Positions 27,090-45,235 of a stretch of 64,000 nucleotides of DNA are shown one piece after another; the stretch's first letter is position 1, and each line of letters begins with the position of its first letter. The stretch covers positions 39,208 through 103,207 of the forward strand of contig CAIKXV010000027.1 in the NCBI GenBank assembly GCA_903831455.1. Reading direction: 5' to 3'. Source of the stretch: an uncultured Pseudomonadota bacterium (lineage in GTDB: Bacteria; Pseudomonadota; Gammaproteobacteria; Burkholderiales; CAIKXV01). The notes below the pieces were generated by a model. That model had not been told where the DNA came from and made no database searches. It saw only the letters and a program-made list of their open reading frames with translations. A program made the translations under genes and the position numbers.

Positions 27090-28064
27090 TCACGCCGCGG
27101 GGACACCCGAGCCCACGGCAACCAGGGCCTTGGCTTCATGCAGGCTGCCCGCGGCACCGCTGCCGTACAGGCAGCAGGCCAGCTGGTGGACCAGCGGACC
27201 CGGCAAGGGCGCCTGCCCGGCCAGCGCAGCGCGGGTCCAGGCCGCGGCCGCCTGCGGCTCGCGCCCGGCCGCCAGCGGGGATGCCGCTCGCGGGGACTCG
27301 ACCTCGGCTTCGAACAGCACCGAGCACAGGCCCCCATCGAACAGTTCCATGCGCGGCCGACGCCGCGCACTCGCGCAGGCCTCCACCGCCGTCGCGTCGA
27401 GCAGGAGCGCTCGTTCGGCGGAACTCTGCAGGTGCTGACGCAGGCTGGCGTGGTCCGAGCGGTCGACGGCCCCGACGACCCGCAGGCTGTCCGGTTCGAA
27501 CGGCGAGAGCAGTCGCGCCACCGAATGCGCGACATTGCGCACACCCAGCCGCGCGGAGAGCGCCATCAATCCGGCCAGTCCGGGCGCGATCGCCCCTACC
27601 GGGACGAAGGCAAGGCCGGTCTCGGCCAGCCGCGCCGTCGCCTGCTCGGCCGACACGCACGGCATGACGCCGAGTTCGCGGAACACGTAGGCGCAGGAGC
27701 CGTCCCGGTCGAGCGTGCCGTGGATGAGTACCGGCACCTGGAAGCGTTGCAGCAGCAGCGCCAGCAGCGGGAGGAGATCGGGCTCGTCGCGTGCCGAGCC
27801 GTAACTGGGAAACACCACCGGTAGCGCCTTGCCCTCCGGCGCGCCCACCGGGGCCACTCGCGCAGCCAACGCGCGGGCAAAACCGAGCCGCTCGGACACC
27901 GACTCGCCCTTCTGCTGGAGGAGCGCGAGGGTTGCGCCCAGTTCCAGTTCGGGCAGGCCGCCGTCGAGCATCGTTGCGAACAGGACCTCGGCCTCCCATT
28001 CCGCGAGGTCGCGAGGTTGCGGACCGTCGCCCGCCAGTTGCCTGAGTATCGATGCGTGAGTCAT
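27090..28064 (-). CDS. ybiB: YbiB/TrpD2-family DNA-binding protein (anthranilate phosphoribosyltransferase-like fold)
   Basis: It aligns by eye with E. coli YbiB: LPELELGATLALLQQKGES, VFPSYGSARD, LGVRNVAHSVARL, ACCLYGSG. ATG 28064 lies after GGAGAGGA. Confidence 0.85.
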   Translation of the reverse strand: MTHASILRQLAGDGPQPRDLAEWEAEVLFATMLDGGLPELELGATLALLQQKGESVSERLGFARALAARVAPVGAPEGKALPVVFPSYGSARDEPDLLPLLALLLQRFQVPVLIHGTLDRDGSCAYVFRELGVMPCVSAEQATARLAETGLAFVPVGAIAPGLAGLMALSARLGVRNVAHSVARLLSPFEPDSLRVVGAVDRSDHASLRQHLQSSAERALLLDATAVEACASARRRPRMELFDGGLCSVLFEAEVESPRAASPLAAGREPQAAAAWTRAALAGQAPLPGPLVHQLACCLYGSGAAGSLHEAKALVAVGSGVPAA

Positions 28065-28202
28065 GAATCGTCCTCTCCGTGCGGAGCCTGCCGTGCCTCT
28101 GGATCCCGGGCACGTTCGTCCCCATCGCGGCCGCGCCCTGCCCTCGCGCGCCGCCACTCGTGCCGCGCGGTGGGAAGCCTCGACACTCCACCCGCGCGTG
28201 CA

Positions 28203-28252
28203 TGGACAGACCGTGCAATCGGCGTGCCAGCCCTGCTTCTGTTCTGGACAGA
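28203..28252 (-). promoter_or_regulatory. repeated TCTGTCCA elements / inverted repeat upstream of ybiB
   Basis: On the plus strand TGGACAGA occurs at 28203-28210 and 28245-28252. The second copy is part of TCTGT-N5-ACAGA (28238-28252). These sites lie 139-188 nt upstream of the ybiB ATG. Confidence 0.25.
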
Positions 28253-28387
28253 TCGTCGCCGCGCCGGAACCTGTGTCCGCATCGCTCCCTGGATGACAGT
28301 GGCGCCCACGAACAGTGCGCAACACTCGCACCCGCGCCCGTTTTGGGTGCGCTGCAGCAGGCATCGACCCGCGATCGGGACGCGCGT

Positions 28388-29644
28388 TCAGCGAGCGAGC
28401 ATCCGGAAGCGGGTCGGGCGATACGGCTCCGGGTCGATGAACGGCGTCCGGCCTGCGACCAGATCGGCGATCAGGCGCGCGGTGGGTGCCGCCCCGCAAA
28501 GACCGGTGTGGCCGTGACCGAACGCGAGGAACACGTCCGGACAGCCGGTCGCGCGGCCGATCACCGGCAGCGAGTCGGGCGTGCAGGGGCGGTGCCCCAT
28601 CCACTCGCGCATGCCGTCCATGTTCACCCGCGGATACATGCGGCGCGTATGCCGGACCAGGGCTTCGATCCGGGCCGCCGTGGGCGGTGCGTCGAGCCCG
28701 GCGATTTCCACCGTCCCGGCGTTGCGCAGGCCGTCGGCCATCGGCGTGACGAAGAACTTGAACTCGCCGGACATGACCGGCATCCGCGGGGCGATCCCGG
28801 GCTCGGGAAAGTGCACGTGGTAGCCGCGCTGGGACTCGAGCGGAACCGATGTCCCCAGCCGAGCCGCGAGGCGCGCGGAGTGCACGCCCGCCGCCAGCAC
28901 CAGGGTCTCCGCGGGTAATCGGCGACCGGACCCGAGCAGCGCTCGGGGGCCGCGCGGGCCGGGTTCGAAGTCCTCCACCTGCAGACGCTCGAAGCGCCCG
29001 CCCGAGGCCATGAAGTGGGCGAACAGCCGGCGCGTCAGCCACAGGGGGTTGGCGACATGGCCCTGCTCGGGCAGCAGCACGCCGCGGGGGTAGATGGGCG
29101 CGAGGTCGGGGTCGAGTTCGCGGATGGCCGCGGCGTCGAGCGGCTCGAGGCGCACGCCCCGCTCGCGGCGCAGCGACCACGCCAGGGCGTCGGACTGCCA
29201 GGCCGCTTCGCTCTCGTAGACGGCCATGTAGCCGGACGGATTGATCAGGTCGCTGCAACCGGCCGCGCGTGCGAGGCGCCCCCACGCCTCGAAGGTGCCC
29301 CCGAGCAGCGGGCGCAGCGCATCGGCGATACGCTCGACCCGGGAGCGCCGGCTCGCCAGCAGGAAGCGCAGCAGCCAGGGCGCCGCCTGCGGCAGGTACT
29401 GCCAGCGCAACGACAGCGGGGCCGCCGGATCCATCAGCCAGCCGGGCACCTTGGCGAGCAGCCCGGGCATCGCCACCGGCACCACCGAGCCCGGACTGAG
29501 GATTCCGGCGTTCCCGCTGGAGGTGGCCTCGCCGGGCTCCGCCCGGTCGACCAGCGTGACGCGGTGGCCGTCGGACTGCAGCCAGCAGGCCGAGGCCACG
29601 CCGACGACCCCCGCACCGAGAACGGTGACCTCGCGCGCGCCCAT
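28388..29644 (-). CDS. FAD-dependent oxidoreductase (D-amino acid dehydrogenase DadA-like)
   Basis: VTVLGAGVVGVASACWL dinucleotide-binding motif. SGNAGILSPG, and the C-terminal GHGHTGLCGAPTARLIADLV, are typical of DadA/DAO-family enzymes. ATG 29644 lies 7 nt after the upstream stop. Confidence 0.8.
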   Translation of the reverse strand: MGAREVTVLGAGVVGVASACWLQSDGHRVTLVDRAEPGEATSSGNAGILSPGSVVPVAMPGLLAKVPGWLMDPAAPLSLRWQYLPQAAPWLLRFLLASRRSRVERIADALRPLLGGTFEAWGRLARAAGCSDLINPSGYMAVYESEAAWQSDALAWSLRRERGVRLEPLDAAAIRELDPDLAPIYPRGVLLPEQGHVANPLWLTRRLFAHFMASGGRFERLQVEDFEPGPRGPRALLGSGRRLPAETLVLAAGVHSARLAARLGTSVPLESQRGYHVHFPEPGIAPRMPVMSGEFKFFVTPMADGLRNAGTVEIAGLDAPPTAARIEALVRHTRRMYPRVNMDGMREWMGHRPCTPDSLPVIGRATGCPDVFLAFGHGHTGLCGAAPTARLIADLVAGRTPFIDPEPYRPTRFRMLAR

Positions 29645-29651
29645 CGCGGGG

Positions 29652-29975
29652 TCAGGCGGACTCGGCAGGTTCGACCCAGCCGCCGCACTGCCAGCAACTG
29701 GCGAAACTCGCCGGGTTCGGCTCGCCGCAACTCGCGCACCGCCGATCCGGGGCACTGGGGCCGCGCCGATCGTGCGCGGCCACGACCGGCTCGGCGCGCG
29801 CAACATCCCGCGGCTCGCTCACCCAGACCTCGGGGCGCACGTCGATGAAGGACAGTTCCCCGAGCGCGCCCGCCGCATGTGCGTTCAGGATGCGGGCCGC
29901 GATCCCGTGGCCGTGCAGCACGTCGGCGAGCAGTTGCGCATCGACGAGATCAGAGGCCACGTACACACGCGGCAT
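29652..29975 (-). CDS. DUF2007-like (putative signal-transducing) domain protein with a C-terminal zinc ribbon
   Basis: MPRVYVASDLVDAQLLADVLHGHGIAARILN... matches the DUF2007 pattern. The C-terminus is CASCGEPNPASFASCWQCG (CxxC-x10-CxxC). The start overlaps the LLM stop by 1 nt (TGATG). Confidence 0.6.
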   Translation of the reverse strand: MPRVYVASDLVDAQLLADVLHGHGIAARILNAHAAGALGELSFIDVRPEVWVSEPRDVARAEPVVAAHDRRGPSAPDRRCASCGEPNPASFASCWQCGGWVEPAESA

Positions 29976-31006
29976 CAGGCGAGCGCGGTGTCGCGGGCGG
30001 AAGTCGCCCCCGAGAGGCCGAAGGCGTCGGCCAGCCGCTCGTACGAACGACGTCGCGTCGCGTAGTCCCCGGTGATGGTGAGCACCATCATCTCGTCGGC
30101 GGCGAACTCCTCGGCCATCCCGAGCAGCCGATCGCGCAGGCGGTCGGCCGTTCCGATCAGCGTGCGCGCGCGATTGCGCTGCACGACCGCGCGCTCGATC
30201 GCACTGTACGCGTAGGCCTCGGCGTCGGCCTGTGTCGGTACCGGGAGGTTGATGCCCTTCTCCTGCCGCAGGCGCCGAAGGTCGATCGCGGCGGCGAGTC
30301 GCTCGGCCTCGGCATCGCTGTCGCCGCAGACGCAGAAGACGGTGAGCATCGAGTACGGCGTGGCCTCCCGCGCCGACGCCTGCCAGTGTTCGCGATAGGC
30401 ACGCATCACGCCGTCGCCACCGTGGCCGCTGATGAAGTGCGCGAAGGAGAACCGCAGGCCCAGGTGGGCGGCCAGCGCCCCGCTGTAGCCTGAGGAGCCG
30501 AGCAGCCAGACCTGCGGCGCGCCCTCCCCGGCGGGCTGCGCAACGACCCGGGCATAGGGATGGTCGGCAGGCAGCGTGCCATCGAGGAAGCCCACGAGAT
30601 CGACCACCTGCTGCGGGAACTCCTCGGCCGTCGGATAGCGGCCACCACCGACCGCATGGGCGGTTCGCTGGTCGCTACCCGGGGCACGCCCGATGCCCAG
30701 GTCGATGCGACCGGGGAACAGCGTCTCGAGCATCCGGAACTGCTCGGCCACCTTGAGCGCGCTGTAGTAGGGCAGGAGCACGCCGCCGGTGCCGATGCGC
30801 ATCCGCTCGGTGGCGGCCGCCACCCTGCCCACGAGGATTTCGGGACAGGGATCGGCCAGCGCGCGCGTGGAATGGTGCTCGGCGAGCCAGTAGCGGTGGT
30901 AGCCCATCTGCTCGCAGGCCCGGGCGAGCGCGAGCGTCTCGGCCACGGCTCGCGCCGGCGAGCAGCCGTCGATGATCGGGGATTGATCGAGGACCGAAAG
31001 TTTCAT
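29975..31006 (-). CDS. LLM-class flavin-dependent oxidoreductase (YhbW-like luciferase-like monooxygenase)
   Basis: MKLSVLDQSPI ... GYHRYWLAEHH ... LFPGRIDLGIGRAPGSDQRT ... VWLLGSS aligns closely by eye with E. coli YhbW. Confidence 0.9.
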   Translation of the reverse strand: MKLSVLDQSPIIDGCSPARAVAETLALARACEQMGYHRYWLAEHHSTRALADPCPEILVGRVAAATERMRIGTGGVLLPYYSALKVAEQFRMLETLFPGRIDLGIGRAPGSDQRTAHAVGGGRYPTAEEFPQQVVDLVGFLDGTLPADHPYARVVAQPAGEGAPQVWLLGSSGYSGALAAHLGLRFSFAHFISGHGGDGVMRAYREHWQASAREATPYSMLTVFCVCGDSDAEAERLAAAIDLRRLRQEKGINLPVPTQADAEAYAYSAIERAVVQRNRARTLIGTADRLRDRLLGMAEEFAADEMMVLTITGDYATRRRSYERLADAFGLSGATSARDTALA

Positions 31007-31012
31007 GCGTGC

Positions 31013-31018
31013 ATTCTA
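31013..31018 (-). promoter_or_regulatory. candidate -10 hexamer placed for a leaderless LLM transcript
   Basis: On the minus strand the sequence reads TAGAAT-GCACGC-ATG. No SD lies between the hexamer and the start. There is no convincing -35. Confidence 0.2.
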
Positions 31019-31260
31019 GCCAACAGCCCACACCGCGGCGAGGGGGAGATGGGCCGCCTGCGGCGACGACGGGGCGCCGCCCCCTCGGCTGACCGCCCGG
31101 GGCCGCATCCCCGCCAGCGGCCGGCGGGATACGGGCCCGCTCCGGCGACCGCCAGCAGCAGGGGCTGCCCCCGGGGCGCAACCTCGGAGCCCGATTTCCC
31201 GCCACGACGACCGGGAATCGACCGGCAAGGTTCGCGGCGTCCGCCGGCCGCGTGCGGCGA

Positions 31261-33726
31261 TTACTGCTGGCCCAGGTAGATGTAGATCGCACGATTGCCG
31301 TCGCGCGCCGCACCGTAGGCCAGGTAGAACGGCCCCAGCGGCGTGTCGATCGCGAGGAACACGCTCCCGGAGACCAGCGTGCCGCGCGGCGAGGCCGCGA
31401 ACAGCGGATCGCGAACCTCGGCCAGTTCGAGCGAGGCGCCGAGATAGCTGCCCTCGAACAGCCCGCGGCGCTGCCACTGGTTGAGGTAGGTCATCCGTCC
31501 GTACAGCAGCGACTGACCCAGCAACTGATTCGGCGCGTAGCCGGACTGGCGATGGAAGCCTCCCCACTGCACCAGGTCGTACCCGGGCAGTCGGTCGTCT
31601 CCGATCGCGCCCGCGGCGCGCACGGCCGTCTGCAGCGTATGGATACCCCAGGAGCGTGCGGCCAGCCCGTCGACGTCGTAGCGCTGGAAACGATCGCTCG
31701 CCCCCAGCGACGGGGTGGACGCATAGAGGTGGCCGAGCCCGCGATATCCGGCGCGCGGGATGCGCGCGCTATCGAGTCGGTCGACGGCCACACGGGCGAC
31801 GAAGCCGCCCTCGTCGTAGGTCTGGCGGGTACGTCCGAAGAGCACCGGACCGGTGTCGAGTTCGATCAGGTTGCGACCGACCCGCACCCCGGCGCGCAGC
31901 TCGCCGTACTGCTCGATCTGCGCTCCGAGATCGACGCCGATCCGGGCGACCGTCTGCTGGTACTGGCCGACGCGGATGTTCCCCTCGTACACCGGGATCG
32001 GCCGGCGGAACATGTCGAGACGGGGCGCGACGAACACCGACTGGTTGACCGCCAGCGGCTGGTAGAACTCCGACAGCAGCCGGCTCTCGCGCCCGACCTG
32101 CAGGTCGTTCCGCCACTCCGCACCCAGAGCGTTCATCCACGTCCGCCGGTAGCTCGCCAGAAGCGAGTAGTAGGACTCGCCTCCGAACTCGCTCGCGAGG
32201 CTCAGGCCGAGCCGCAGGTAGTCCGGTCCCCAGGCCTTCTCGGGCGCCTTGACCGACAGCACCTGGCGCCCCGACTCCTCGAGCAGTTCGTAGCTCACGT
32301 GCTCGAAATCGCCGCGCCCGTAGATGCGGCGCAGGTCGGCATCCAGCGTCGGCTGGTCGAGCGGCTGCCCGACCCGCGTCTGCATGCTGCCGACCACCAC
32401 GGCCGGATTGACGCGCTCGAGCCCGGTCACCCTGATCTCGTCGACGGTGCGCGTGGGCGCCTCGCGGACGCGGGAACGGGCCTGCTGCCAGTCCCGGTAT
32501 CCATCGGGGTCCATCGACAGGCGGGCGAGTCGGTTCCCGACAGACCGGGCGGCCGCCTCTCCGACGGGCACGGCGGTGGGCATCCGGTTGAAGTCGGCCG
32601 AAGACAAGTCGCCGAGCGCGGGCTCGATCAGGATGTCTCGCGGGCCGAGGCTCGCCACGGAGGCGCGGACGTTGCTCTCGGTGAGGAGGCCGATCACCTG
32701 CACGCTCACCGCGAGCAGCGAGTCGATCTGCGCGCGCTTGAGCAGCGGCGTGCCGACGTTGACCGCGATCACCACGTCCGCGCCCATCGCCCGCGCCTCC
32801 TCGACCGGCAGGTTGCGCACGAGCCCGCCGTCGACGAGCAGGCGCCCGTCGATCTCGATCGGGGCGATCGCGCCGGGCACCGCCATGCTCGCGCGCATCG
32901 CCGAGGCCAGGCTGCCGCGCGCCAGCCGCACCGCGTCCCCGTTCTCCACGTCGGTCGCCATGGCCATGAACGGGATGGGCAGCTTCGAGAAGTCGGTCTC
33001 GCCCGATACGGTCAGCAGCCGCCGCAATACCGCCTCGAGCGCCACACCCGACACGGCGCCTCGCGGCGCCTGGATCCGTCCGCCGCGAAAGCCGAACTCC
33101 GGCCCGAGGAAAGGCAGGTAGTCGTCGGCTCTCCGGCGCAACGGCAGGTCGACCCGCGCCGGACGATCGTCGAGCAGCGTGGGCGTATCGAGTTCGGGCA
33201 GCAGCCGTTCCAGTTCCGCGACCGTCGTGCCCGACGCATAGGCTGCGCCGACGATCGCGCCCATGCTCGTCCCGGTGATGATGTCGATCGGAATGCGCAT
33301 CTGCTCGAGCGCCTTGAGTACGCCCAGGTGTGCGGCGCCCCGCGCGCCACCGCCCGAGAGCACCAGCGCGATCCGCGGGCGGCGCGCGTTCGCCGCGCCC
33401 GCCTCGCCCTGCCCCACGGTCGCCGACCCCATCGACTGCCCGGGCCGGGCAGCCGGGTCCGCGTGAGGACCGCTCGACGGATCGGCGGCGCGGGCGGGCG
33501 TGGCTGCGCGGTGCGTCGGGTCGGACGTCGCGACGACGGCAGCCGCCGGGGCGCGAGTCGCGGTGGCGGCCGATGGACCCCCGGCCGATCCCACGCCCGG
33601 CGGCAGGCCCAGCCCGATGACCGCCAGGATCCGCAGGGCGAGGCCGAGGTGGCGAGCACCACCGCCGACCGACTTGCGGACTCCGCACCCGTTGCCCGCC
33701 GAGCCGCCCCCCGGATACCGATTCAT
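31261..33726 (-). CDS. PlpD-like patatin phospholipase with POTRA and Omp85-type beta-barrel (type Vd secretion architecture)
   Basis: Signal-like N-terminus. Patatin motifs LSGGGARGAAHLG, GTSMG (GxSxG) and DGG. Then a POTRA-like IRVTGLERVNPAVVVGSMQTRVGQPL and a long beta-strand-rich C-terminus ending in aromatic-rich YIYLGQQ. ATG 33726 overlaps the hslR stop (ATGA). Confidence 0.85.
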   Translation of the reverse strand: MNRYPGGGSAGNGCGVRKSVGGGARHLGLALRILAVIGLGLPPGVGSAGGPSAATATRAPAAAVVATSDPTHRAATPARAADPSSGPHADPAARPGQSMGSATVGQGEAGAANARRPRIALVLSGGGARGAAHLGVLKALEQMRIPIDIITGTSMGAIVGAAYASGTTVAELERLLPELDTPTLLDDRPARVDLPLRRRADDYLPFLGPEFGFRGGRIQAPRGAVSGVALEAVLRRLLTVSGETDFSKLPIPFMAMATDVENGDAVRLARGSLASAMRASMAVPGAIAPIEIDGRLLVDGGLVRNLPVEEARAMGADVVIAVNVGTPLLKRAQIDSLLAVSVQVIGLLTESNVRASVASLGPRDILIEPALGDLSSADFNRMPTAVPVGEAAARSVGNRLARLSMDPDGYRDWQQARSRVREAPTRTVDEIRVTGLERVNPAVVVGSMQTRVGQPLDQPTLDADLRRIYGRGDFEHVSYELLEESGRQVLSVKAPEKAWGPDYLRLGLSLASEFGGESYYSLLASYRRTWMNALGAEWRNDLQVGRESRLLSEFYQPLAVNQSVFVAPRLDMFRRPIPVYEGNIRVGQYQQTVARIGVDLGAQIEQYGELRAGVRVGRNLIELDTGPVLFGRTRQTYDEGGFVARVAVDRLDSARIPRAGYRGLGHLYASTPSLGASDRFQRYDVDGLAARSWGIHTLQTAVRAAGAIGDDRLPGYDLVQWGGFHRQSGYAPNQLLGQSLLYGRMTYLNQWQRRGLFEGSYLGASLELAEVRDPLFAASPRGTLVSGSVFLAIDTPLGPFYLAYGAARDGNRAIYIYLGQQ

Positions 33727-34100
33727 GTCCCCCCCCGCCATCGTTCGAGGTCGCGTCGCTCGCGCTTGGTCGGGCGCCCGGTCCGCTCGCCCCAGGACCC
33801 CGCCTCGCGAGCCGCTGCCTCGGCTTGCCGCCGCGCCGCACTGGCGACCGTCTCCTCGTACAGCGCCCGCGCCTGCTGCGCGCCGCCGCGCCGCTCGATC
33901 ACGCCGAGCACCCTCACCTCCCATGCCTGGCCGCCGGCCCGAACCTCGACCGTGTCGCCCGCGGCCACCTCGCGCGAGGGCCGTGCCCGCTCGCCGTTCA
34001 CCCGCACATGGCCTGCGCTCACCGCACCCTGCGCGAGCGTGCGGGTCCGGAAGAACCGTGCCACGTGCAGCCAGCGATCGACGCGCAAGGAATCGCTCAC
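33723..34100 (-). CDS. hslR: ribosome-associated heat shock protein Hsp15 (S4 RNA-binding domain)
   Basis: LRVDRWLHVARFFRTRTLAQGAVSAGHVRVNGERARPSREVAAGDTVEV is an S4-domain/Hsp15 pattern with a basic C-tail. GTG 34100 overlaps the upstream stop (GTGA). Confidence 0.8.
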   Translation of the reverse strand: MSDSLRVDRWLHVARFFRTRTLAQGAVSAGHVRVNGERARPSREVAAGDTVEVRAGGQAWEVRVLGVIERRGGAQQARALYEETVASAARRQAEAAAREAGSWGERTGRPTKRERRDLERWRGGT

Positions 34101-35365
34101 AGCGGCCTCTGCCGGGTGGACGGACGCCGCAACTTCGCGCGCACCCACTGCGCGAAACGGTGGCAGTCGAACTCCTGCGGCACGTAGACGCCGTGGCTGA
34201 AGCCACGTGCCGTCACGCCCCGCTGCTGCCATTCGCAGTTGCGTGCATCCTGCGCATTGGTGACGCGCCACACCGACAGGTAATGCTCGAGGTCGAAGCC
34301 GGGGCGCGACACGGCCTCGGGCTCGAACAGCCAGTCGTAGACGATGCGCACCCGCCCCGGCCCGACCGGAAACACGAGGTGCGCGTTCACGTAGTCCGGA
34401 TGCAGGTTGAGGAACAGGTTCGGCGGCAGCAGCGCCGGCTGGTAGGGCAATCGACGCTCCGCCTCGCCGAGCCCGCGGAAGGGCGGCACGCGCGAGCGAC
34501 CGTCCGGCGTGAGCGTCTCGGTTCCCGGCCGGAACTGGGGCGTGGGCTCGATCCGCGGCGCTGCGTCGCGGCCGCGGCGCAGGCCCCACGCGCCGCCCTC
34601 GCGGTAGGCCGGCACCAGCCGGCACAGTTCGGGGTGCACCGGCGGGCAGTGGAAGCACTCGCAGAAGTTCTCGCAGACGAGTTTCCAGTCGGCGGCCACC
34701 TCGACCTCCAGCCGGTGGCCGACCACCAGTCCCTCGAGGCCGTAGCCCGCGAGGCGCTCCGGCATCCAGCCCAGGCTCTCGCGCAGCGGGGCGACCGTGC
34801 CCGTACCCAGGTTCACGAACACGAAACCGCCCCACAGGTCGGCCCGGACCGCCAGCAGGCCCAGGCGATCGGCATCGAAATCCGGCGTGGGCATGCGCCG
34901 CGGGGTCGATTGCAGCCGACCGTCGAGCCGGTAGCTCCACGCGTGGTAGGGACAGGTGATGCGCCCCCCGCGCAAGCGACCGGAGGCCTCGGTACACAGG
35001 ATCGATCCGCGGTGCCGGCAGGTGTTGTGGTAGGCCCGGACCGTGCCCGCGTCGTCGCGCACGAGCAGCAGGGACTGCCCGGCGAGATCGACCACGCGAT
35101 AGTCGCCGGGCGCGGCCAGCTCGTCGGCCCGGGCCACCGCGATCCAGCTGCCGAACCAGATCCGGTCGACCTCTCGTCGGTGGTGGTCCGCGTCGTGGTA
35201 CCAGTGCCCCGGCAACCCCTGCGCCAGGCGACCGAGCGGCTCGCGGATCGGACCGCGCGACTGCGTGGCCGCCGGCGCGCGAGCGACCGCGGGCTGCCCG
35301 GCCGCAGCGGCAGCCGGACCCTTGCGCGCGAGGCGGGTGCCGCGGGACGGTGTGCGATTGGCCAT
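34097..35365 (-). CDS. Rieske [2Fe-2S] aromatic-ring-hydroxylating oxygenase alpha subunit (GbcA/CntA/choline-monooxygenase-like)
   Basis: Rieske motif CRHRG-x17-CPYHAW. Mononuclear iron motif ENFCECFHCPPVHPE. ATG 35365 has no good SD. The N-terminal 40 aa are Arg/Ala-rich. Confidence 0.85.
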   Translation of the reverse strand: MANRTPSRGTRLARKGPAAAAAGQPAVARAPAATQSRGPIREPLGRLAQGLPGHWYHDADHHRREVDRIWFGSWIAVARADELAAPGDYRVVDLAGQSLLLVRDDAGTVRAYHNTCRHRGSILCTEASGRLRGGRITCPYHAWSYRLDGRLQSTPRRMPTPDFDADRLGLLAVRADLWGGFVFVNLGTGTVAPLRESLGWMPERLAGYGLEGLVVGHRLEVEVAADWKLVCENFCECFHCPPVHPELCRLVPAYREGGAWGLRRGRDAAPRIEPTPQFRPGTETLTPDGRSRVPPFRGLGEAERRLPYQPALLPPNLFLNLHPDYVNAHLVFPVGPGRVRIVYDWLFEPEAVSRPGFDLEHYLSVWRVTNAQDARNCEWQQRGVTARGFSHGVYVPQEFDCHRFAQWVRAKLRRPSTRQRPL

Positions 35366-35427
35366 GGGCGGGAGTCTATCGCCACTGGCCACGACGCCGA
35401 CGACTCCCCATCGCGTCGCGCGCGCGC

Positions 35428-35433
35428 TATAGT
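35428..35433 (+). promoter_or_regulatory. candidate -10 hexamer positioned for a leaderless transcript of the nitrile-hydratase-family operon
   Basis: The sequence reads TATAGT-TTTCACC-ATG(35441). There is no SD. The hexamer sits in a 75-bp divergent spacer. The -35 is poor (TCCCCA). Confidence 0.3.
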
Positions 35434-35440
35434 TTTCACC

Positions 35441-35821
35441 ATGAAGACCACGTCCACCCCCCCTGTACACGAGTCGGCGGCCCCGGTCGGTCGCTGCGGC
35501 TACCACGACATCGGCGGACTCACCGCCGGAGCGATCGACCCTGCCGAAGAGCCGGTGGAGTTCTGGCACAAGCAGAACGAGGCCCTCCGCGGGCTGCTGG
35601 GCGACCCGCTGCGGCGCATGGTGTCGGTCGATGAAGTCCGGCGCGCCTTCGAGTCGTTCGGCGAGGACAAGTACAACCGCCTCTCCTTCTACGAGCGTCG
35701 ACTCGAGGCCATGCTCGACATCCTCGTCGAGAAGGGACTCATCGACCGCGAGACCTTCATGCGCAGGGTCGAGGCCGAACTCGCCGCGCGAGGCGCGGCG
35801 GCACCGGTGGCGTCGCGATGA
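35441..35821 (+). CDS. nitrile hydratase beta subunit, N-terminal-half polypeptide (thiocyanate hydrolase beta-like)
   Basis: 126 aa. GYHDIGGL ... EEPVEFWHKQNEALRGLL ... LSFYERRLEAMLDILVEKGLI matches the N-terminal domain of NHase beta subunits. It ends where the SH3-like domain would begin. Confidence 0.8.
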   Translation: MKTTSTPPVHESAAPVGRCGYHDIGGLTAGAIDPAEEPVEFWHKQNEALRGLLGDPLRRMVSVDEVRRAFESFGEDKYNRLSFYERRLEAMLDILVEKGLIDRETFMRRVEAELAARGAAAPVASR

Positions 35822-36138
35822 ATCCGCTGGCGGCCGCACCGCGGCCCGCGTGCGGCGAGCCGCGCTTCGTGCCCGGGGACCGGGTCCGGGTGCTGGACCT
35901 GCCTCGCCCCGGCCATGTACGCACCCCGCACTATGTCCGCCACAAGGTGGGGACGGTCGTCGAATACACCGGCCTGTTCCTCAACCCCGAGGACCTCGCC
36001 TACGGACGCTGCAGTGGCCCGGCCGTCAATGGCTACCGGGTCGTCTTCGACCAGTCGCACCTGTGGCGCGACTACCGGGGCAGCGGCAGCGATCGCCTGT
36101 TCATCGAACTGTACGAGCACTGGCTGGAGAGGGCCTGA
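35818..36138 (+). CDS. nitrile hydratase beta subunit, C-terminal SH3-like-half polypeptide (thiocyanate hydrolase alpha-like)
   Basis: 106 aa. FVPGDRVRVLDLPRPGHVRTPHYVRHKVGTVVEY ... YRVVFDQSHLW ... IELYEHWLE matches the C-terminal domain of NHase beta. ATG 35818 overlaps the upstream TGA (ATGA). Confidence 0.8.
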   Translation: MNPLAAAPRPACGEPRFVPGDRVRVLDLPRPGHVRTPHYVRHKVGTVVEYTGLFLNPEDLAYGRCSGPAVNGYRVVFDQSHLWRDYRGSGSDRLFIELYEHWLERA

Positions 36139-36142
36139 CCCG

Positions 36143-36808
36143 ATGCCGCACGACGCGCCCCACGGACACGATCACGACCACGACCACGACCCGCACGCGC
36201 CTGCCGCCGACCTCGGCGACGCACGCTCCCGTTGGTACGAGGTGGCCTCCGACGTGATGCGCGACATGCTGGTCGAGCGCCAGGTGCTCACCGCCCGCGA
36301 AGTGAGCCGCCAGATCGAGCTGATGGAGAGCAAGTCGATCCAGCTCGGGGGACGCCTCGTCGCCCGGGCGTGGACCGATCCCGACTTCCGCACCCGCCTG
36401 CTCGAGGACGGCAAGGCGGCCGCGGCCTCCATCGGCATCCCGATGACCGAGGCCGCGCTCAAGGTGGTCGAGGACACGCCTGCCGTGCACAACGTGATCG
36501 TCTGCACGCTGTGTTCCTGCTACCCGCGTTCGCTGCTCGGCCAGCCGCCCGCCTGGTACCGCAACAAGGCCTACCGCTCGCGCGTGGTGCGCGAGCCGCG
36601 CCAGGTCCTCGCCGAATTCGGCACCCGCGTGCCCGACGACGTCGAGATCCACGTGCACGACTCCAACGCCGACCTGCGCTTCATCGTGCTGCCGATGCGC
36701 CCGGCCGGCACCGAGCGGCTCGACGAGGCCGCCCTCGCCGCGCTCGTCACCCGCGACTGCCTGATCGGCGTGGCTCCGCCCCGGCTCCCCGACGTCGCGG
36801 CCGCCTAG
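36143..36808 (+). CDS. nitrile hydratase alpha subunit, cobalt-type (thiocyanate hydrolase gamma-like) with a His/Asp-rich N-terminus
   Basis: Metal-binding VCTLCSCYPR (CTLCSC is the Co-type signature). RQVLAEFG ... LRFIVLPMRPAGTE ... VTRDCLIGV. The N-terminus is MPHDAPHGHDHDHDHDPH. GGAGAGG lies upstream. Confidence 0.9.
   Translation: MPHDAPHGHDHDHDHDPHAPAADLGDARSRWYEVASDVMRDMLVERQVLTAREVSRQIELMESKSIQLGGRLVARAWTDPDFRTRLLEDGKAAAASIGIPMTEAALKVVEDTPAVHNVIVCTLCSCYPRSLLGQPPAWYRNKAYRSRVVREPRQVLAEFGTRVPDDVEIHVHDSNADLRFIVLPMRPAGTERLDEAALAALVTRDCLIGVAPPRLPDVAAA
36167..36190 (+). repeat. hexanucleotide repeat (CACGAY)x4 encoding (His-Asp)4
   Basis: cacgatcacgaccacgaccacgac, read directly. It lies inside the 5' end of the alpha-subunit gene. 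Confidence 0.9.
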
Positions 36809-44258: not shown

Positions 44259-45235
44259 TCACTGGGCCGTCAATCCCGCTGCCTGCACGACCTTGCGCCA
44301 CTTCTCCACCTCCGAGCGAATGAACTGCGCGAAAGGCGCTGGGCCATCGCCGTTGATCGAATAGCCGATCTCCACCAGCCGCCGCGACGTCTCCTCGCGC
44401 CGCAGCGCGTCGGACACGGCGGCGTGGAACGCGGACACGACCTCGGCCGGCGTGCCGGCAGGCACCATCGTGCCGTGCCAGAAGCCCGACTCAGCCCCCG
44501 GGAACCCGGCTTCCCCCACGGTCGGCACGTCCGGCAGCACGGGAATGCGCCGGCCGTCCATCGCCGCGATCGCGCGCAGGCGACCCGACCGCACATGCGG
44601 CAGCGCAGAGGCCAGCGGCGCGAAGTAGACTGCGCTCTCGCCCGCGACCATCGCGTTGATCGCCTCGCCTCCCCGCGGTACGGCACATGCAGCATGTCGA
44701 CGCGTGCGACCAGGCGGAACAGCTCGCCACCGATGAAGGTGGGCGAGCCGGCACCGGCCGATGCGTAGTTGATCGCGCCCGGGCGCGACCGCGCCAGCGC
44801 CACCAGCTGTTTCACGGTCTTCACCGGCAGCGACGGATGCACCACCAGCAGCGCCGGCGAGGCGCCGATATTCGTCACCGCGGTGAAGTCCCGCAGCAGG
44901 TCGTAGCCCAGTTTCGGGTACAGCGTGGCATTCACGCTGTGGCTGAAGTTGACCTGCAGCACCGTGTAGCCGTCGCGCGGCGCCTTGGCCACGAACTCGG
45001 CGGCGATGTTGCCTGCGGCGCCCGCACGGTTCTCCACGACGATCGGCTGCCCGGTCGACTGGGACACACCGTTGGCGAGGATTCGACCCACGGTGTCGGC
45101 GCCCGACCCGGCTGAATTGGGCATGATCCATCGCACCGGCTTGGCTGGCCAGCCCTGCGCCAGTGCCGGGCCTGCCACGCTGACGGCCAGCAGCGCCGCA
45201 ACCGGCGCGAGGGTACGCGCGCGTCGACGGTTCAT
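44259..45235 (-). pseudogene. Bug-family solute-binding protein gene interrupted by a frameshift
   Basis: The N-terminal two-thirds (MNRRRARTLAP...MLHVPYRG) read in the frame of ORF 44270..45373. The C-terminal third (GEAINAMVAGE...KWRKVVQAAGLTAQ) reads in the frame of ORF 44259..45350. The switch is at the G4 run (plus-strand cccc at 44671-44674). One extra G would restore HVPYRGGGEAI. Confidence 0.75.

Follow-up and report, generated by a model that had tools for sequence, protein, structure and literature searches.

The window, a 64,000-nucleotide stretch of DNA from an uncultured Burkholderiales bacterium, carries on its minus strand an array of three genes with no intergenic space between them, as both junctions overlap (Table 1). 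The first gene encodes the alpha subunit of a Rieske non-haem-iron oxygenase with 422 amino acids (aa), the second is hslR, which encodes an Hsp15-family S4-domain protein of 125 aa, and the third codes for an 821-aa outer-membrane phospholipase of the PlpD-type patatin-Omp85 (PL-Omp85) family. The array had been noticed as a possible operon that links three functions. Judged from the gene order in related genomes, the three-gene overlap is best explained as a by-product of a local deletion in a clade-specific synteny block, i.e. by ordinary gene-order drift.

Three genes with overlapping ends

The Rieske gene and hslR share the four nucleotides (nt) GTGA (...CCG CTG TGA with GTG AGC...), hslR and the phospholipase gene share ATGA (...GGG ACA TGA with ATG AAT...). 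Both overlaps are exactly where the original prediction had placed them, and identical metagenome contigs with independent gene calls give the same 422-, 125- and 821-aa products and both 4-nt overlaps. The geometry of the junctions is identical to that of the ordinary ATGA/GTGA stop-start overlaps of co-directional bacterial genes, from which they stand out only by joining functionally unrelated genes. In a ~16-kb gene list around the locus, six of the 12 co-directional adjacent pairs overlap to some extent (the luciferase-like/DUF2007 pair by 1 nt), four of them by 4 nt. Outside the trio, a 4-nt overlap is present in 2 of 10 such pairs, namely between the nitrile hydratase (NHase) beta-N and beta-C genes and between two TctC genes. 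Overlaps of 4 nt are locally commonplace, and the two in the array are no more than chance for the source genome. The GC content of this genome is ~72%, and the profile along the window is flat (70-79%); the composition profile of the window, searched for a horizontally acquired island, gave no sign of one. Generally, compact high-GC genomes readily yield 4-nt stop/start overlaps between unrelated genes, and a shared function needs a conservation test.

All three gene identities and their domain content (Rieske and Ring_hydroxyl_A; S4 and HSP15_C; Patatin, POTRA and Omp85) were confirmed. The Rieske protein matches the Pfam families Rieske (1.1e-20) and Ring_hydroxyl_A (1.7e-38), and its motifs CRHRG...CPYHAW and ENFCECFHCPPVHPE are conserved in an alignment with relatives. 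The top matches in the PDB are 3n0q, 3vca, 4qup and 6y8j. The Rieske CxH...CxxH motif and an ExxxExxHxxxxH-type iron site are shared with GbcA (glycine betaine), Stc2 (stachydrine, 3vca), CntA (carnitine, 6y8j) and NdmA/B-like proteins (4qup). The best NCBIfam model is GbcA; however, the score of 190.1 bits is far under the equivalog cut-off of 670. The earlier label 'GbcA/CntA-type' is hence apt only at the level of the subfamily, not in the sense of a GbcA equivalog. The protein would be expected to act as an N-demethylase-type monooxygenase. No GbcB/CntB-like reductase with an FNR-type/ferredoxin-reductase domain was found among the called genes, ~10 kb on the upstream side and ~6 kb downstream of the Rieske gene.

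The 125-aa protein matches the Pfam family S4 (3.5e-12), and its residues 5-124 align with residues 9-130 of E. coli Hsp15 (1dm9, E 1.5e-21), a range that takes in the RPxKxERRDL tail at the C-terminus. This near-full-length alignment with the Hsp15-specific tail led us to reject an assignment as some other S4 protein. The protein falls under the cut-off of the NCBIfam Hsp15 equivalog NF007673 (82.9 bits, cut-off 148), but its match runs from position 6 to position 130 of the 133-position model. In E. coli, Hsp15 belongs to the heat-shock proteins (PMC9757039). The Hsp15 of the E. coli hslR-hslO (Hsp15-Hsp33) heat-shock operon has the S4 domain and the C-terminal tail in common with the 125-aa protein, which would be expected to recycle 50S subunits that carry peptidyl-tRNA. 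As in E. coli, hslR heads a tightly packed two-gene unit in the layout that is reconstructed below for the ancestor of the clade, but its downstream partner is the PL-Omp85 phospholipase and not Hsp33.

In the 821-aa protein, the Pfam families Patatin (1.8e-36) and Omp85 (1.1e-05; 25.5 bits at a cut-off of 24) were detected, and its patatin domain aligns with the crystal structure of PlpD (5fqu) with an E-value of 1.4e-76. An AlphaFold2 (AF2) model (pLDDT 76) shows the patatin fold at residues 119-417. A Foldseek search with this model returned PlpD as top match (TM 0.93), followed by BamA and TamA (E ~1e-16). The motifs SGGGARG (residues 124-130), GTSMG (152-156) and DGG (299-301) are invariant columns in an alignment of 16 PL-Omp85 homologues; they correspond to the oxyanion motif (SGGGARG) and the Ser-Asp dyad (GTSMG and DGG) of the family. 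With its patatin motifs, one POTRA domain and a 16-strand barrel, the protein is a member of the PL-Omp85 family. It has the same architecture as PlpD of P. aeruginosa (PA3339) and FplA of Fusobacterium nucleatum, i.e. an N-terminal patatin domain with GGGxRG, GxSxG and DGG motifs, a single POTRA domain and a 16-strand Omp85 barrel. The family was formerly known as 'type Vd secretion'. PlpD is reported to be a homodimer with a periplasmic patatin domain, and a plpD mutant to have altered phospholipid levels; the authors favour a role in outer-membrane lipid homeostasis and oppose one in secretion (Hanson et al. 2024, PMC11116518). Hence, the earlier description as PlpD-like with patatin, POTRA and Omp85 parts stands, while the attribute 'autotransporter-like, surface exposed' is dated. 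By analogy, the 821-aa protein would be a dimeric outer-membrane phospholipase with a periplasmic lipase domain and a role in lipid homeostasis.

The N-terminal region differs from that of the homologues, which comprise 740-770 aa and align with the 821-aa protein only from about residue 110 onwards. Compared to these PlpD-type relatives, the protein has ~60 extra residues, which form a disordered Ala/Pro-rich linker after a signal-like segment. In the AF2 model the pLDDT is below 50 across residues 1-113, with a helix at residues 28-36. The hydrophobic segment (~26-41) is preceded by R/K and followed by GSA; it is a putative signal peptide, an assignment that hinges on the start codon of the 821-aa frame. 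The linker itself (residues ~50-113; 33382-33580, minus strand) is unusually long, disordered and rich in Ala, Pro and Gly, with a local GC content of up to 79%, and most of it is missing from the homologues.

Gene order in the closest relatives

Gene contexts were taken for the closest phospholipase and Rieske homologues, which fall into two sub-lineages. Sub-lineage A comprises the window and the loci L088 and L173, with the order NHase (opposite strand), Rieske, hslR and PL-Omp85. The L173 contig stops inside hslR, and the patatin gene is confirmed only in L088. The L088 phospholipase is 84% identical to that of the window, the Rieske proteins of L088 and L173 are 76-80% identical (77-80% for L173). 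Both loci have ATGA at the Rieske/hslR junction, in place of the GTGA of the window. In sub-lineage B (L083, L086/L087 and L003), NHase (opposite strand) and the Rieske gene are followed by a TctC gene on the opposite strand, a gap of 130-190 bp, hslR overlapping the PL-Omp85 gene, and the luciferase-like, DUF2007 and DAO genes. Here the phospholipases are 56-61% identical to that of the window. The hslR/PL-Omp85 overlap is ATGA in L083, L086/L087 and L088, and TGATG in L003.

At the Rieske/hslR junction, ~1.1-1.2 kb are present in relatives, taken up by a TctC gene on the opposite strand and an intergenic region on either side of it. The intervening TctC gene is orthologous in L003, L086, L174/L175 and L169 (76-85% identical to the copy in L083), whereas the window contains only paralogues of it, with at most 45% identity. 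As the C-terminus of the Rieske protein is conserved through the last residue in both sub-lineages (five relatives), TctC and both intergenic regions are cleanly absent from the window. The original prediction had named conservation of the three-gene order as a check. The overlapped Rieske-hslR junction is limited to the window and its two close relatives, L088 and L173, and the proposed operon that meaningfully links three functions is not borne out by this check, as the packing is recent, local and dispensable in relatives.

The hslR-phospholipase pair is itself not stable. In L174/L175, which are nested in sub-lineage B in the Rieske tree, the same flanking block is present and hslR has been kept, but the phospholipase gene is reduced to an open reading frame (ORF) of ~50 codons (L174 10765-11000; L175 8686-8920). 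This stub starts with a TTG that overlaps the hslR stop, and it encodes a signal-like segment and, after a linker, 'RPMIGLVLS', the first patatin strand, which is comparable to the invariant R116, P117, I119, V122, L123 and S124 of the homologue alignment. The stub is fused to the final part of a HAMP domain, which is out of frame with it; Ser/Thr kinase, radical-SAM and luciferase-like genes follow. The stub looks like a rearrangement scar, and the phospholipase gene appears to have been destroyed in this lineage while hslR survived. Locus L169, which lies outside both sub-lineages in an unbootstrapped neighbour-joining (NJ) tree of the Rieske proteins, has the order NHase (opposite strand), Rieske, TctC (opposite strand), HAMP protein, kinase, hslR alone and opposite-strand ABC genes, with no phospholipase gene.

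Across the clade, the enzymes that flank the pair share 73-84% identity, with full collinearity over a block of ~15 kb. With the whole block collinear at this level, the persistence of the hslR-patatin pair is no stronger than background synteny. The pair is confined to one small clade, broken in L174/L175 and absent in L169. Comparison of L083, L086 and L003 with the window shows that the phospholipase (56-61%) and Hsp15 (52-54%) are far more diverged than the luciferase-like protein (79%), DAO (73-74%) and NHase alpha (82-84%).

The constant partner of the Rieske gene lies on its other side. The NHase genes are 66-93% identical across all clade members and L169, and there they are always divergent from the Rieske gene; two to three TctC genes come after the NHase cluster. 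Since NHase is the constant divergent partner, the Rieske gene is assigned, from gene order, to a divergently transcribed NHase/TctC catabolic cluster. This distinguishes it from GbcA/CntA systems, as the conserved partner is NHase together with TctC binding proteins.

For a broader survey, the alignment of the 16 PL-Omp85 homologues was used to collect 80 loci with 7-kb flanks from GTDB contigs, with one genome per species (38-56% identity; the best 80 of at least 330 genomic relatives). Hsp15 and Rieske genes are found near PL-Omp85 in only one of these species, represented by L003, the closest one (tblastn, 7 kb); the other 79 have neither. Likewise, a profile hidden Markov model of Hsp15, applied to all ORFs with 90 aa or more up to ~4.5 kb away from the phospholipase match, detected L003 alone. 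Among the PL-Omp85 genes surveyed, a position directly 3' of hslR is seen only in the small clade of the window. In the reverse direction, an Hsp15 alignment yielded 80 metagenomic loci (the best 80), 64 of them with at least 700 nt downstream. One locus is from the organism of the window itself, and in the flanks of the other 79 (40-57% identity) no PL-Omp85 or Rieske gene was found. Hsp33 adjoins Hsp15 in about nine of these 79. Clustering of neighbouring ORFs showed that neither PL-Omp85 nor Hsp15 has a dominant neighbour elsewhere. The flanking genes of the clade (luciferase-like, DUF2007, DAO and NHase) were sought in 159 outgroup loci and are carried by none of them, and the events at the locus were therefore polarised from the contexts of the Rieske homologues.

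The commonest neighbour of PL-Omp85 in the survey, at 15 of the 80 loci, is a membrane protein with a periplasmic Lnb_N domain (DUF4105; Pfam 5.8e-37). Its gene precedes the PlpD-type gene on the same strand in species that include Pseudomonas, Rubrivivax and Roseateles metagenome-assembled genomes (MAGs) (L004, L011, L013, L015, L017, L018, L019, L023, L026, L027, L028, L030, L044, L051 and L069). Compared with Hsp15, this neighbour is the better match for a role in envelope lipids.

Origin of the arrangement and alternative explanations

We infer that a lineage-specific gene-order change packed together three genes with independent functions, and regard this as likely. All three are routine members of described families, and their lineage-restricted arrangement is best seen as incidental. 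The ancestral layout would have been NHase and TctC genes (-), Rieske (+), TctC (-), hslR (+) overlapping the PlpD-family patatin-Omp85 gene (+), and the genes for the luciferase-like monooxygenase, DUF2007 and DAO. In this layout hslR and the PL-Omp85 gene would stand apart as a unit of two genes, preceded by an intergenic region of its own. The sub-lineage of the window would then have lost ~1.1-1.2 kb, comprising the opposite-strand TctC gene and both intergenic regions that flank it, which would have brought the hslR start onto the Rieske stop codon. With L169 as outgroup, a loss of TctC in sub-lineage A is the parsimonious assumption: L169 lies outside both sub-clades and yet has the Rieske gene followed by opposite-strand TctC, which favours a loss in the window lineage.

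As a consequence of the deletion, hslR and the phospholipase gene are now probably read through from the divergent Rieske/NHase promoter region (35366-35440), unless a promoter that escaped recognition lies within the Rieske gene. The upstream motifs of sub-lineage B are absent from the window, and no promoter or terminator consensus was seen in the array. The motifs common to the TctC/hslR intergenic regions of L003, L083 and L086 (GGTGCTGGCTAC and TTTGYTATCCTCCGC) have no credible copy in the window between 33601 and 35500. A consensus scan of 28000-36500 for sigma-70 promoters found no promoter-like site, a result that is uninformative at 72% GC. A sigma-32-like pattern has a single weak match, inside the Rieske gene, and none other upstream of hslR. 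The scan of 28000-36500 for intrinsic terminators gave one terminator-like site, at 35412-35426 and outside the three genes, where 1.1 are expected by chance, and is equally uninformative. The 75 bp between the Rieske gene and the NHase operon are presumably the only upstream non-coding DNA that could drive the array. With its genes overlapping and free of internal terminator-like sites, the array could plausibly be co-transcribed in the source strain, and translation may proceed by termination-reinitiation at the GTGA and ATGA junctions. In the 254-nt gap 3' of the phospholipase gene, no terminator-like structure was seen.

Some points weigh against this reconstruction. The hslR/PL-Omp85 stop-start overlap has been kept in four sampled lineages despite phospholipase identities of 56-84%, and selection for co-expression could be the cause. 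Since the Rieske tree is rooted on unbootstrapped NJ, a gain of TctC in the sister lineages is a less parsimonious alternative to its loss. With the best 80 of at least 330 PL-Omp85 relatives surveyed, the pairing could have arisen again, independently, in more distant taxa outside this set.

The kept overlap also speaks for hslR and the PL-Omp85 gene being a real two-gene stress module, in which a heat- or stress-responsive promoter and translational coupling would give stoichiometric co-expression, and which the Rieske gene would have joined accidentally. The overlap is found in the window, L088, L083, L086/L087 and L003, among which Hsp15 is 52-82% identical (tblastn). A shared stress regulon is conceivable as well, given the heat-shock nature of Hsp15 in E. 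coli (PMC9757039) and the proposed function of PlpD in outer-membrane lipid homeostasis (PMC11116518). However, the pair is limited to one small clade whose ~15-kb block is collinear anyway, and it is missing from 79 of 80 PL-Omp85 loci and from all 79 Hsp15 loci elsewhere. L174/L175 lost the phospholipase but kept hslR, and L169 has hslR alone. Moreover, the pair's own upstream region is gone in the lineage of the window, which argues against a finely tuned dedicated promoter, and a literature search for Hsp15/hslR and patatin found no paper with both among the matches listed. A module of this kind is therefore unlikely. If it were true, regulation would offer a first way into the physiological role of PlpD-type PL-Omp85 proteins, and translation stress would be linked to outer-membrane lipid remodelling. 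A lineage-specific form of it, in which coupling ties the periplasm-facing phospholipase to the ribosome-rescue protein and the deletion rewired the module under the Rieske/NHase control region, appears decidedly improbable. A link of a heat-shock ribosome-rescue factor with an outer-membrane lipid enzyme is conceivable, the one observation that speaks for it being the local conservation of the pair.

Whether hslR and the phospholipase gene overlap at all is decided by the start codon of the latter. The overlap would be an annotation artefact if translation started at an internal Met ~98 codons downstream (~33432), which would leave ~290 nt of non-coding DNA with room for a promoter of its own. 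Consistent with such a start, the NCBI pipeline gives 723 aa for a near-identical MAG protein from the same 90% cluster, with the start ~290 nt downstream, and residues 1-113 are predicted to be disordered and show no sequence conservation across homologues. A 723-aa product would, however, be devoid of the signal peptide that an Omp85-type outer-membrane protein needs, as the hydrophobic segment at ~26-41 would be lost. The GC content at third codon positions (GC3) is the highest of the three positions across the first 100 codons of the 821-aa frame, and L083, L086, L088 and L003 have, on or beside the hslR stop, an ATG that leads into a signal-peptide-like sequence. With other gene callers, the length comes out at 821 or 835 aa. 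We favour the 821-aa start, which is suggested by the only signal-like segment, the GC3 pattern and the ATG at the hslR stop of the relatives, and consider an artefact very unlikely.

That all three gene products work in one pathway or response, encoded by an operon in which tight coupling was selected, is scarcely credible and appears largely refuted by the comparative data. In its favour, both junctions overlap with zero intergenic DNA, and the Rieske-hslR overlap is common to the window, L088 and L173, but in all other relatives the opposite-strand TctC gene between Rieske and hslR precludes a shared transcript, the Rieske gene is in constant partnership with the divergent NHase genes, its distant homologues occur in other catabolic contexts (sulfatase and GMC oxidoreductase; adenosine deaminase), and we know of no biochemical link among a Rieske oxygenase, Hsp15 and a phospholipase.

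Neighbouring genes and further observations

Table 1. Features at the locus, with their positions in the window.
Feature	Position	Strand	Basis
Rieske non-haem-iron oxygenase alpha subunit, 422 aa, Stc2/GbcA/CntA-like N-demethylase group	34097-35365	-	Pfam, NCBIfam, PDB
GTGA overlap, Rieske stop/hslR start	34097-34100	-	Sequence; Rieske TGA 34099-34097, hslR GTG 34100-34098
hslR, Hsp15-family S4-domain protein, 125 aa	33723-34100	-	Pfam S4; precomputed PF28601 HSP15_C; 1dm9 alignment
ATGA overlap, hslR stop/PL-Omp85 start	33723-33726	-	Sequence; hslR TGA 33725-33723, patatin ATG 33726-33724
PlpD-family patatin-Omp85 (PL-Omp85) outer-membrane phospholipase, 821 aa + stop	31261-33726	-	Pfam, PlpD 5fqu, AF2, Foldseek
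N-terminal region, residues 1-115: signal-peptide-like hydrophobic segment (~26-41) and disordered Ala/Pro-rich linker	33382-33726	-	AF2, GC3, homologue alignment
Patatin domain, residues 116-417	32476-33381	-	Alignment of homologues, PlpD alignment, AF2 model
Single POTRA domain, residues ~427-493	32248-32448	-	NCBIfam BamA 427-481; PDB 2x8x POTRA 400-481; AF2 beta-alpha-alpha-beta-beta 430-493
16-stranded Omp85 beta-barrel, residues ~503-821	31264-32220	-	DSSP, 16 strands at 503-818; Foldseek BamA/TamA; Pfam Omp85
Divergent intergenic region of 75 bp, Rieske gene/NHase operon; putative promoter region	35366-35440	.	Sequence; no sigma-70 consensus match
Three-piece nitrile hydratase: beta-N 35441-35821, beta-C 35818-36138, alpha 36143-36808	35441-36808	+	Gene calls, Pfam

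The NHase next to the Rieske gene is encoded in three pieces, with products of 126 aa (beta-N), 106 aa (beta-C, with a 4-nt overlap) and 221 aa (alpha). The alpha subunit has the cobalt-type motif VCTLCSC and a His/Asp-rich N-terminus (MPHDAPHGHDHDHDHDPH). No separate activator gene was found among the nearby gene calls. Searches of the whole window with Rfam (gathering thresholds) and for tRNA genes returned nothing.

Two more distant Rieske homologues (58-62%, tblastn) are located at L170 and L171, neither of which has hslR or the phospholipase gene. At L170 (7001-15221) its neighbours are sulfatase, GMC oxidoreductase and ABC-transporter genes, a context that resembles choline-sulfate use, and at L171 (5997-8203) it shares 4 nt with the adenosine-deaminase gene upstream of it. 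Such contexts hint at an action of the Rieske family on small nitrogenous compounds.

Downstream of the array, the gene of the luciferase-like monooxygenase (29975-31006) is preceded by TTGGCTAGAATGCACGC-ATG (31007-31030, minus strand), in which a -10-like hexamer TAGAAT is 7 nt away from the start codon. This spacing suggests that the gene may have its own promoter, with a very short or absent leader.

At 44271-45220 on the minus strand, a TctC-like match is split into two abutting tblastn segments (query residues 19-204 and 206-338), which may represent a TctC paralogue with a frameshift or an interruption. Besides this one, at least six further TctC paralogues are present in the window.

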